This document shows, one piece after another, positions 9,315-16,362 of a stretch of DNA of 64,000 bases (positions are counted from its first letter, which is position 1; each line of letters starts with the position of its first letter). The notes beneath the pieces were generated by a model. It did not search any database, was not told the origin of the DNA, and saw nothing but the letters and a program-made list of their open reading frames with translations. Made by a program: the position numbers and the translations under genes. The stretch comes from Bacteroidota bacterium (GTDB lineage Bacteria; Bacteroidota; Bacteroidia; Chitinophagales; Chitinophagaceae), in contig JAEYQO010000104.1 of NCBI GenBank assembly GCA_023409975.1, positions 1,157 through 65,156 on the forward strand, read 5' to 3'.

Positions 9315-9884
9315 ATGCTTTCTGTGAGAATAAAAAGCGAAACCCTGGAGGAACACCAACAGGCTGAAGCCCAATTATTGCCTTTTCTGAATTCCATCCA
9401 AACCCGCGACCAATACATACAACTGCTCCAAAGTTTCCTGCAATTTTATCAGCCATTGGAAAATTTAATACATGCTGCGCTGACCCCAGAGCAATTGCCA
9501 GACCTACACGAACGCAGGCATGCACACCGGCTGCTTTCAGACCTCAGGGAACTGAATGCTGCAGAGGGTCTCCTGCCGGTGCCGGTCCGTGATACCCTTA
9601 CTGCTCCCGGTGCCTGGGGCGCTCTTTATGTACAGGAAGGATCCACACTGGGAGGTCAGTATATCAGTCGACTTTTACTGAAGAATGAGGCGCTCCGTCT
9701 GACACCTGCCCAGGTATCGTTTTTTAGTGGATATGGTAGTCAGACCGGCACCCGGTGGAAACTGTTTCAGGAATCCCTCAATAAACAGCGGGACGAAGAT
9801 GCCATCATTGCTGCCGCAAAACATACTTTTTTACTTTTTCAAAACCATCTGAATGCAACCCTTAACTTTTTCGTCACTCGCTGA
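9315..9884 (+). CDS. bphO: Heme oxygenase (biliverdin-producing, BphO-type)
   Basis: LSVRIKSETLEEHQQAE (proximal-His region), ...YIQLLQSFLQFYQPLE..., GALYVQEGSTLGGQYIS (the distal-helix G..YV.EGS.LGG motif of HO). Its end overlaps the phytochrome start by 32 nt. Confidence 0.8.
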   Translation: MLSVRIKSETLEEHQQAEAQLLPFLNSIQTRDQYIQLLQSFLQFYQPLENLIHAALTPEQLPDLHERRHAHRLLSDLRELNAAEGLLPVPVRDTLTAPGAWGALYVQEGSTLGGQYISRLLLKNEALRLTPAQVSFFSGYGSQTGTRWKLFQESLNKQRDEDAIIAAAKHTFLLFQNHLNATLNFFVTR

Positions 9885-14400: not shown

Positions 14401-16362
14401 AGCAGTGCCATCTATGACCGGGACCTCGTGAATAACAGGATATGGTGGAGCGAATCGTTTTATAAATGGCTGGGCCATGAGGAAACCCCCGAACTATCCC
14501 AGCCATCCTCCTGGCTCAACCTTGTGCATCCTGACGACCGAAAACGGGTGGAGGAAGCCTGGTCTGCACTGCTTCTTAATAACGGACAATGGGAACAGAC
14601 CTACCGTCTGAAAAGCAGGGATGGAAATTATATTGCTGTTGAAGATAAAGGCACCCTGCTTACCAGTGAAGCCGGGATTCCTTTTCGACTTATCGGTGCA
14701 CTGACCGATCTTTCGATTGCAGAACTCAAACAGCAGAACAGGCAGCTTCAACTGACCAATGATGAGCTGGAAAGGCAGGTTCAAAAAAGGACCCGGGATC
14801 TGGCAGAGCAGAAAGCCGTATTACAGGATCTGTTCATGAGGGCACCGGCGATGATCTGTATCCTCAGAGGGGAAAGCCTGGTGTTCGAGCTGGTAAATCC
14901 GCAGTATCAGAAGATGTTCCCACACCGGGAATTGAAAGGTAAATCGGTCTGGGACGCGTTACCGGAAATCAAAGGACAGCCCATCGAAAAGATATTGCAG
15001 CAGGTATATGAGAAGGGTGAAACTGCGGTAGAAAATGAATTCAGGGTAGAGTTGACGCGGGCTGGGGATGGTTCGCTGGAAGAATCCTTTTTCAATTTTG
15101 TTTATCAACCGACATTTGACGAAGAAGGAAAAGTGGATGGGATTCTGGTATTTGCCTATGAGGTGACAGAACAAATGTTGGCACGCCGGGCAGTACAACA
15201 GGCCAACGAAGAACTGAGACAATTGAACCGTGAGTTCCAGTTTGTTACCGATTTTATGCCTCAACTGGTTTGGTCTACACAGCCGGATGGTTATCACGAT
15301 TTCTACAACCGGCGCTGGTATGAATACACAGGATTGAGCTACGAAAGAACCAAAGGGGAAGGGTGGAACGCTGTTTTGCATCCGGAAGACCAGGACAGGT
15401 CCTGGGAATTATGGAAGAAGAGTCTGGAGACGGGGGAAGTCTATGAGGTGGAATACCGGTTCCGGAGATACGACGGCGAATATCGCTGGTTTCTGGGAAG
15501 AGCGCTCCCTCTGAGAGATGACAACGGAACCATCCTGAAATGGTTTGGGACCTGCACGGACATCCATGATCAGAAGATTATGAACGAACTCCTGGAGGAA
15601 CGGGTGAAAGAACGTACTTCTGAACTGGAGGCCGCCAATGCGGAGCTCACCCAGTTTGCTTCCATCGCCAGTCATGATCTTAAGGAGCCTGTCCGAAAGG
15701 TGATCATTTTCAGCCATGCTTTGAGAGATCTTCATGAGAAAGATCTGAACGAGAAAGCGCTTCGCTACCTCGAAAGAATCATCACTTCCGCAACACGGAT
15801 GAATCAGCTGGTGACGGATCTGCTGGACTTCACCGGTCTGAGTAATGTAAACTTCCAGACTGAAGTGGTGGATCTGAATGAGCTGCTTGCTGGGGTTCTT
15901 GGTGACCTGGAGCTTAAGATTCAGGAGACAGAAGCTGAGATAGAAATAGGCCCACTTCCTGAAATAGAACTGATTCCTGCTCAGATACGGCAGGTGTTTC
16001 AGAATCTGATCTCCAATTCATTAAAGTTCAGGCGCGGGGAAGTTCCGCTGCTCGTGCGGGTTGAAGCTCAGCGCGTCTCAGATCTTTCCTTTACCAGCAC
16101 CCAGACCAGGGAAGGTGCCTATGTACGGATCCGCGTGGAGGATAATGGCATCGGCTTCGATAATGAGTATGCGGAGAGGATCTTTAAGATGTATCAGCGA
16201 TTGCATTCAAAGGAAAGCTACGAGGGTACGGGCATTGGTCTGGCCATCGTCAAAAAGGTAATCGAAAACCACAAAGGCATCATACGCGCGCAGGGCAGGG
16301 AAGGTCATGGGGCTGTATTTGAGATCGTTCTGCCTTTGAGACAGAAGGAGGGTGCCAGGTAG
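11401..16362 (+). CDS. CheB methylesterase - CheR methyltransferase - coiled coil - multi-PAS - HisKA/HATPase sensor histidine kinase
   Basis: CheB: [34 protein letters not shown]. CheR: [56 protein letters not shown]. NEELxSx heptads, then several PAS modules. HisKA: [15 protein letters not shown] (His codon 15673-15675). HATPase: VEDNGIGF...[18 protein letters not shown]. Confidence 0.9.
   Translation: [1653 protein letters not shown]
13399..13503 (+). repeat. Five in-frame 21-nt repeats encoding the NEEL(Q/L)S(S/A) heptad coiled coil
   Basis: aacgaagaactgcaaagcagc / aacgaagaactactgtcggcc / aatgaagagctgcagagcagt / aacgaggagttgcagtcactg / aatgaggaactgcatacactc. Confidence 0.9.

Follow-up and report, generated by a model that had tools for sequence, protein, structure and literature searches.

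Canonical bacteriophytochromes carry their own kinase. What, then, is the signalling partner of a phytochrome that ends directly after its photosensory core? The question is raised by a 64,000-nucleotide (nt) stretch of a Chitinophagaceae genome (Bacteroidota bacterium, contig JAEYQO010000104.1; hereafter the window). Here, three tightly packed genes on the same (+) strand (9315-16362) encode a bphO-type heme oxygenase, an output-less bacteriophytochrome and a kinase with fused CheB and CheR domains. We propose, as the probable answer, that Bacteroidota keep a conserved two-component cassette with light as its input, whose phytochrome and kinase are split into two proteins.

Organization of the cassette

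The open reading frames (ORFs) of the heme oxygenase and the phytochrome share 32 nt, the start of the phytochrome lying inside the end of the heme oxygenase. The phytochrome stop codon (TAA, 11380-11382) is followed by the ATG of the kinase after an 18-nt gap. The original prediction, made from the letters of the DNA alone, had described the three close genes, the overlap and the gap, and all ORF positions are exactly as it gave them. It had also seen no terminator hairpin at either junction; a pattern scan agrees. Pfam searches of the three proteins return Heme_oxygenase for the first, PAS_2-GAF-PHY for the second, and CheB-CheR-PAS-HisKA-HATPase for the third, as had been predicted. The first hairpin that the pattern scan finds on the (+) strand after the kinase is followed by a T-run, and is likely the end of the operon. 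A sigma-70 promoter scan of the cassette is uninformative, the consensus not being meaningful for Bacteroidota, and scans for Rfam families and tRNAs give no match inside the cassette.

In the window, the phytochrome and kinase ORFs are in one frame, split by tandem stop codons (TAA TAG) and five codons (11380-11403). In orthologous loci the gaps are mostly not multiples of three. Therefore, the common frame is probably a coincidence. A phytochrome-kinase fusion made by read-through was also considered; the tandem stops and the gap lengths elsewhere speak against it.

The phytochrome has an intact photosensory core and no effector

The phytochrome consists of PAS_2, GAF and PHY domains, followed by a short C-terminal helix and the stop codon. 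The chain ends seven residues past the PHY domain, where crystallographers commonly cut photosensory-core constructs. No C-terminal effector (kinase, GGDEF/EAL or PAS9/HOS) is detected in it by Pfam. The NCBIfam model of bacteriophytochromes (BphP) gives the 509-residue protein 285 bits against a cutoff of 1040, and NCBIfam has no dedicated model. The best match in the PDB is the photosensory core of Stigmatella BphP (6bap; E = 1e-91, residues 9-502).

Residue Cys17 aligns with the cysteine of the N-C-D-R-E-P-I-H motif of 6bap. It is invariant in 22 homologues (alignment A1), as are D200 and P202 of the D-I-P motif and His253 in the GAF domain, and Y462, H463, P464, R465, S467 and F468 in the PHY 'tongue'. 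Judged by these residues, the protein looks photochemically competent. By sequence, it is a bacteriophytochrome in its photosensory features, and falls short of one in its lack of a fused effector.

The original prediction allowed for an assembly error at the stop codon, in which case the real phytochrome ORF would be longer. The identical 509-residue protein, 18-nt gap and kinase start are present in three independent assemblies (two from ENA and one from Logan). In addition, we searched a database of 5.8 billion proteins and examined the 120 best matches. They are 290-529 residues long, nearly all of them about 500, and have phytochrome-core domains; a kinase domain is found in none of the 120. 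The named members among them are Flavisolibacter and Chitinophagaceae. The stop codon is genuine, and the output-less form is a large conserved family.

The 189-residue heme oxygenase is divergent in sequence. It contains an EGSxLGG motif, and its His14 aligns with the histidine that we take to be the proximal ligand of Neisseria HemO and Pseudomonas aeruginosa HO.

The phytochrome and the kinase are paired in both directions

A scan of one genome per GTDB species gave 80 loci, taken with 10 kb on each side, that belong to Chitinophagia, Sphingobacteriia and Cytophagia; we surveyed them by tblastn with the window domains and by clustering of ORFs. The ORF starts were called naively, and the loci are phylogenetically related. 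A short phytochrome ORF (~500 residues) is present in 72 of the 80 loci, and 70 short-phytochrome loci have at least 700 nt of downstream sequence. CheB/CheR lies immediately 3' of the output-less phytochrome in 68 of these 70, and is a neighbour in none of the six loci (L026, L039, L057, L058, L059 and L078) whose full-length phytochromes (750-909 residues) have their own kinase. The hypergeometric probability of exactly 68/2 versus 0/6 is ~1e-7 (computed by hand, with no correction for phylogeny), a value that overstates independence because the loci are related. The neighbourhood survey that the original prediction proposed has accordingly been run; the adjacency, whose loss in relatives would have counted against that prediction, is kept across three Bacteroidota classes.

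The genes are closely packed in the relatives, too. Full-length kinase ORFs (1303-1874 residues) are present in 54 loci; the distance from phytochrome stop to kinase start has a median of 14.5 nt and is at most 60 nt in 51 of the 54. All 24 orthologues tested have one and the same Pfam set. In 56 of 68 loci the gene immediately before the phytochrome is a homologous heme oxygenase, and in 26 of 52 orthologous loci the kinase is followed by a receiver-only response regulator. Beyond this regulator, ORF clustering reveals no conserved neighbour or output gene and no DNA-binding protein. In Chryseosolibacter indicus (L027), a stand-alone 197-residue CheB gene without receiver (8606-9199, +) lies just upstream of bphO.

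Trees were built by neighbour joining and midpoint-rooted. In the tree of phytochrome cores, the six full-length phytochromes and that of L075 form a separate branch. The L075 phytochrome (10007-11542) is short, groups with the full-length ones and has a heme oxygenase gene downstream. Another short phytochrome, that of L070 (5610-7136), is a long-branch outlier and is followed by membrane protein and glycosyltransferase-like genes (by sequence, without Pfam).

The survey was also made from the kinase side. The window kinase belongs to the CheB/CheR fusion protein family (KEGG K13924). Its residues 1-830 (CheB, CheR, a cryptic PAS domain, a helix and PAS_10) are the module of a very large family, 12,737 clusters (50% identity) matching this N-terminal module at E <= 1e-30. 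The best 150 representatives of the module are nearly all full-length, and the 149 others are 38-59% identical to the window's. The window kinase, the 54 kinases of linked loci and 34 representatives form one group in the neighbour-joining tree, with the other 114 representatives outside. We then have a metagenome scan seeded with CheB-CheR family members from outside this clade, which yields 80 loci, 55 of them holding more than 1.6 kb upstream of the CheB match. A phytochrome is found in only two of the 80 (L132 and L136), directly upstream of CheB-CheR. The CheB domains of these two are 58-60% identical to the window CheB, versus 36-53% in the other 78 loci, and by this measure L132 and L136 look like members of the phytochrome-linked group. 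Neither phytochrome nor heme oxygenase is found in the other 78. Taken with the adjacency on the phytochrome side, this restriction to one clade means that the pairing is specific in both directions.

The proteins also appear to have been inherited together. Pairwise distances of the phytochrome correlate with those of the CheB-CheR module (r = 0.82) and of the heme oxygenase (r = 0.85), whereas distances of the kinase transmitter correlate poorly (0.44-0.48; 0.48 with the phytochrome). The poor correlation arises because a variant has replaced the transmitter in Sphingobacteriia and Pontibacter, where the orthologues keep the cassette and the kinase module is only ~26% identical. Thus, the phytochrome travels with the N-terminal module and not with a particular kinase subtype.

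Since the stop codon is real, and the pairing is both conserved and clade-specific, functional coupling of the output-less phytochrome and the CheB-CheR kinase is strongly supported, and we regard it as very likely. The split phytochrome of the original prediction holds up in this sense, as a functional pairing.

The kinase carries predicted CheB and CheR enzymes and a long helix

The CheB domain begins at residue 24, and Pfam finds no Response_reg match ahead of it, indicating that the receiver domain is absent. In an alignment with Salmonella CheB (1a2o), its catalytic residues Ser164, His190 and Asp286 have Ser29, His56 and Asp148 as counterparts, a triad that is conserved in orthologues (alignment A2). 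The CheR region matches PDB 5ftw (E = 3e-34), and its invariant residues sit in the ACSTG(E/Q)E and CRNxLIY stretches (24 orthologues). The catalytic and motif residues of CheB and CheR are intact, and both are predicted to be competent enzymes.

The region that follows was modelled with AlphaFold2 from alignment A5 (residues 476-835; mean predicted local distance difference test score, pLDDT, 85). The model contains, in order, a cryptic PAS-like domain of five strands plus helices, a disordered linker, and an 89-residue helix that runs straight into PAS_10. Foldseek matches this PAS-helix-PAS model to tandem PAS proteins (DosP, FixL and PpsR N-Q-PAS1) with low template-modelling (TM) scores of ~0.25, a likeness that goes no further than architecture. 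Residues specific to the phytochrome-linked clade (L694, H705, D717, L719, Y722, F723, Q730 and I753) cluster at 694-753, where the helix ends and PAS_10 begins. They are a lead for a docking site.

At the C-terminus, the H, N, G1 and G2 boxes keep H1425, N1539, D1581/G1583/G1585 and G1609/G1611/G1613 without exception in 24 orthologues, and the kinase matches PDB 8f71 (E = 6e-44). From these boxes, the 1653-residue protein is judged a bona fide HisKA-type kinase. Pfam detects no chemoreceptor signalling domain (MCPsignal) in it, and no chemotaxis (che) genes are present among the scanned ORFs of the window or the conserved neighbours. Nothing in the cassette or the window places the kinase in a chemoreceptor-CheA-CheW pathway.

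The helix bears near-invariant Glu-Glu heptads

The 89-residue helix carries three to five consecutive heptads of the forms E-E-L-Q-S/A-S/T and E-E-L-L-S/A-A/S. Residues 661-704 of the window kinase ([42 protein letters not shown]) are near-identical across 55 orthologues that are otherwise 38-55% identical. The N-E-E-L-Q-S-S/T pattern is almost invariant in CheB-CheR kinases: the motif is present in 148 of the best 150 family representatives, and the Glu-Glu pairs and the Asn at every seventh position are kept in 198-203 of 203 family members. Two consecutive heptads occur in 136 ORFs of the window and 2.33 Mb of loci, and 135 of these ORFs also have CheB or CheR motifs; the loci had been chosen for carrying such genes.

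The classical methylation consensus of chemoreceptors is Glx-Glx-x-x-Ala/Ser-Ser/Thr with heptad spacing. The kinase heptads agree with it at the motif level only. Invariance at solvent-facing heptad positions suggests a surface that is read by an enzyme, and the fused CheR and CheB domains are the obvious candidates to read it.

Relatives of ~600 residues contain PAS, helix, PAS_10 and kinase and lack CheB and CheR. Two of three lie 0.4-1.3 kb from a full CheB-CheR kinase with its regulator, in Mucilaginibacter and Sphingobacteriaceae, which is a hint in favour of such a reading of the helix. In L164, the short heptad kinase (6001-7797) is followed by a full CheB-CheR-PAS_10 kinase (9060-12284) and a receiver gene; in L165, the corresponding genes are at 6001-7818 and 8245-11448, again with a receiver gene. 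The heptads of the short kinases are slightly degenerate ([28 protein letters not shown]). These proteins may be trans-substrates or heterodimer partners of the CheB-CheR kinase.

The H-box is not specific to phytochrome kinases

The original prediction noted the H-box of the CheB-CheR kinase ([15 protein letters not shown], with His1425) and likened it to that of canonical bacteriophytochrome kinases. The H-box is present as described, but it is not diagnostic. The window also encodes an unrelated 1821-residue kinase (22757-28222, -) with two HisKA and two HATPase matches, GAF and PAS domains and an internal receiver. Its H-box is the same ([11 protein letters not shown]), and over the transmitter it is 43% identical to the CheB-CheR kinase. 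In addition, phytochrome kinases in the PDB (~4e-21) score against the CheB-CheR kinase like Thermotoga HK853 (2e-21). Together with the swapped modules of linked orthologues, these results rule out the H-box as a phytochrome-kinase signature.

Two receiver-only genes adjoin the 1821-residue kinase, one following it (22315-22770, -) and one upstream (28360-29004, -). They are only 36-38% identical to the cassette-linked regulators. The gene after the CheB-CheR kinase (16676-17095, +) encodes a ribosome hibernation factor-like protein (Ribosomal_S30AE), at the place where about half of the orthologous loci have the regulator.

Features of the locus

Coordinates of the cassette and its domains are collected in Table 1.

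Table 1 Features of the cassette, in positions of the window
Feature	Position	Strand	Extent and basis
bphO-type heme oxygenase	9315-9884	+	189 aa; Pfam Heme_oxygenase, E = 1.3e-11
Output-less bacteriophytochrome	9853-11382	+	509 aa; PAS_2, GAF, PHY (Pfam)
Phytochrome PAS_2			aa 17-95; Pfam
Phytochrome GAF			aa 147-304; Pfam
Phytochrome PHY			aa 325-502; Pfam
Cys17 codon, predicted biliverdin attachment site	9901-9903	+	aligned to 6bap Cys
PHY 'tongue' motif Y-H-P-R-A-S-F	11236-11256	+	aa 462-468; alignment A1
CheB-CheR-PAS-helix-PAS_10-PAS array-HisKA-HATPase kinase	11401-16362	+	1653 aa; Pfam
CheB methylesterase domain	11470-11997	+	aa 24-199; Pfam CheB_methylest, 1-174 of 174 profile positions
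CheR methyltransferase (CheR_N and S-adenosylmethionine-binding domain)	12073-12783	+	aa 225-461; Pfam
Cryptic PAS-like alpha/beta domain	12934-13257	+	aa ~512-619; AlphaFold2 model, no Pfam match
Single 89-residue helix, cryptic PAS to PAS_10	13309-13575	+	aa 637-725; AlphaFold2 (model residues 162-250), pLDDT 94-98
Near-invariant heptads, candidate methyl-accepting Glu-Glu pairs	13381-13512	+	aa 661-704
PAS_10 domain	13555-13875	+	aa 719-825; Pfam, E = 2e-29
Further PAS array (PAS_4, PAS_3, PAS_9) and second coiled coil	13888-15600	+	Pfam; alignment A2 consensus
HisKA (His1425) and HATPase_c transmitter	15646-16341	+	aa 1416-1478 and 1527-1647; Pfam
Terminator-like hairpin, with T-run to 16558	16529-16548	+	~170 nt 3' of kinase stop; pattern scan

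Near its start, the window contains a transposase fragment (DUF772; 523-933, -) and an intact insertion-sequence transposase (DDE_Tnp_1/DUF4372; 2067-3314, -). The independent assemblies L081 and L082 of the cassette locus break off a few hundred bases ahead of the first shared gene. Secreted proteins with type IX C-terminal sorting domains (Por_Secre_tail, CHU_C) are encoded at 4454-5749, 8266-9063, 17285-18910 and 36058-37986, which fits an origin in Bacteroidota.

A model for signalling and its alternatives

In the model that we favour, BphO would make biliverdin for the phytochrome, and the 509-residue core would bind it at Cys17 and photoconvert. The phytochrome dimer would then change the autophosphorylation of the CheB-CheR kinase by non-covalent contact. 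We lean, on balance, towards such direct physical signalling in trans. The phosphoryl group would pass to a single-domain response regulator, encoded 3' of the kinase in about half of the loci and elsewhere in the window's organism. The receiver-less CheB and CheR would demethylate and methylate the Glu-Glu heptads of the 89-residue helix and reset the gain of the kinase, and methylation of the helix could provide chemotaxis-style adaptation to steady light. That the kinase's own CheR and CheB act on its heptad helix is a serious possibility, put forward tentatively. More speculative, and in our view rather doubtful as a whole, is the full picture of a self-adapting photoreceptor kinase, in which a phytochrome acts in trans and the kinase's own CheR and CheB act on the helix, so that non-flagellated Bacteroidota would have chemotaxis-style adaptation and memory without the help of a chemoreceptor, CheA or CheW, and in which the whole CheB-CheR-helix-PAS_10 family would be methylation-adapting kinases.

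Several observations weigh against this model. On the side of the pairing, the loci behind the synteny counts are not phylogenetically independent, the output-less phytochromes of L070 and L075 have no adjoining CheB-CheR kinase, and a search with a hidden Markov model of the photosensory core finds no natural phytochrome-CheB-CheR fusion in the 150 family representatives. No response regulator lies next to the window's kinase. On the side of methylation, the helix fits the extended consensus only in part. It has no homology to the chemoreceptor signalling domain, with no MCPsignal match at E <= 10, a threshold at which Pfam returns generic coiled-coil noise only. Moreover, the Glu-to-Gln variation seen at chemoreceptor sites is essentially absent from the helix in 203 sequences.

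The cassette could instead hold two parallel systems that are merely co-transcribed, the phytochrome serving another partner, the kinase sensing other cues, and the genes staying together for co-regulation. RpBphP1, which binds the transcription factor PpsR2 in a light-dependent manner, is a model for such a phytochrome. The kinase has PAS domains of its own (at least six, counting the cryptic one), most of its family has no phytochrome (78 of 80 sampled loci), and L070 and L075 show that the short phytochrome can stand without a kinase neighbour. However, adjacency in 68 of 70 loci from three classes, mostly within 60 nt, is hard to reconcile with separate functions. So are the confinement of the phytochrome link to one clade of the kinase family, the co-inheritance (r = 0.82), and the failure of ORF clustering to find any other conserved neighbour or a DNA-binding protein. 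We consider parallel systems unlikely.

Light could also act on the modification enzymes, with the phytochrome gating the access or activity of CheB and/or CheR, or being their substrate, and methylation setting the output of the kinase. CheB lacks the receiver domain that usually controls it, and the phytochrome tracks CheB-CheR (r = 0.82) over the kinase module (r = 0.48), which is swapped in some lineages; both facts are in keeping with this route. The clade-specific residues, however, lie at the junction of helix and PAS_10 and not in CheB or CheR, and no methylation-consensus motif is noticed by eye in the C-terminal helix of the phytochrome. This route, too, seems improbable to us.

A PAS_2-GAF-PHY protein coupled to a heme oxygenase might be a sensor of bilin, heme turnover or redox state that reports heme oxygenase activity to the kinase. 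Against this, the residues that define photoactive bacteriophytochromes are all invariant, and bphO-bphP is the standard arrangement of a light sensor, making such a role very improbable. Finally, canonical bacteriophytochromes with their own kinase, and full-length forms within Bacteroidota, might suggest that the short form arose as an artefact or is the remains of a decaying gene, but an assembly error or truncated pseudogene is refuted by the identical gene in three assemblies, the ~500-residue length of nearly all of the 120 best homologues, the conserved chromophore and tongue residues, and the conservation of the short form over three classes, leaving this explanation next to no probability.

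Comparison with known systems

The preferred reading, a phytochrome split from its kinase, differs from the canonical bphO-bphP operons of Deinococcus radiodurans, Pseudomonas aeruginosa and Stigmatella aurantiaca. Those operons likewise place a heme oxygenase beside a PAS_2-GAF-PHY protein with an N-terminal Cys, and likewise use a HisKA/HATPase kinase with response regulator output. Here, the kinase is a separate 1653-residue protein, and CheB, CheR, the heptad helix and a PAS array precede its transmitter.

Photoreceptors that bind a separate PAS protein in a light-dependent manner are known from RpBphP1-PpsR2 of Rhodopseudomonas palustris and AppA-PpsR of Rhodobacter sphaeroides, a mode of action that is only proposed here. 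The PAS-long helix-PAS model shares with PpsR N-Q-PAS1 no more than its architecture (Foldseek TM 0.22-0.25). In those systems, however, the partner is a transcriptional repressor and not a kinase, methylation enzymes are lacking, and RpBphP1 retains its own PAS9/HOS output module.

The closest functional analogy is the sensory rhodopsin-Htr system of Halobacterium, in which a separate photoreceptor acts in trans on a signalling protein whose helical Glu pairs are methylated and demethylated by way of CheR and CheB for adaptation. There, the photoreceptor is a retinal membrane protein and not a soluble bilin protein, the transducer is a chemoreceptor that controls CheA, and neither CheR nor CheB is part of a fusion. 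Methylation has been proven in that system and is inferred here. Cyanobacterial PixJ/TaxD1 phototaxis receptors also couple a bilin photosensor to chemotaxis-type signalling, but their GAF sensors are fused to a chemoreceptor domain and act via CheA/CheW, whereas the cassette has a HisKA kinase and no chemoreceptor domain.

Short LOV proteins (for example PpSB1) are photosensor modules without a fused effector and are presumed to signal in trans (PMC6798134). They are flavin-based sensors of blue light, in contrast to the bilin phytochrome of the cassette. To our knowledge, few of their partners have been identified, and a conserved neighbouring gene for a partner, as in the cassette, has not been described for them. 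Within the CheB/CheR fusion family K13924, to which the window kinase belongs, only one Bacteroidota group is linked to phytochrome.

The full-text literature searched, which lies mostly outside subscription journals, describes neither a pairing of output-less phytochrome and CheB-CheR kinase nor any functional work on the CheB-CheR fusion family, and none of its papers gives the heptad sequence. The original prediction had been aware of no split phytochrome with a methylation-capable kinase and had regarded the large CheB-CheR-PAS kinases as functionally uncharacterised; the search agrees with it on both. The cassette points to an undescribed light-signalling system of Bacteroidota.

Implications

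If the proposed signalling is correct, the cassette would be a natural and conserved example in which a complete photosensory core controls a kinase that is a protein of its own. For the phytochrome field, it would offer a clean system to study how a signal leaves the PHY domain when no covalent helical linker carries it, and it may yield a new two-component tool for red/far-red optogenetics. Light would become a defined, switchable input for one clade of a very large and apparently uncharacterised family of CheB-CheR kinases. The heptad helix is a concrete candidate substrate, so that the role of CheB and CheR in organisms thought to lack chemoreceptors becomes testable. The distribution of the cassette suggests that many Chitinophagaceae, Sphingobacteriaceae and Cytophagales of soil and rhizosphere sense red/far-red light. 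If methylation of the helix were true for the whole family, more than 12,000 clusters (50% identity) would constitute an unrecognised class of methylation-adapting two-component kinases.

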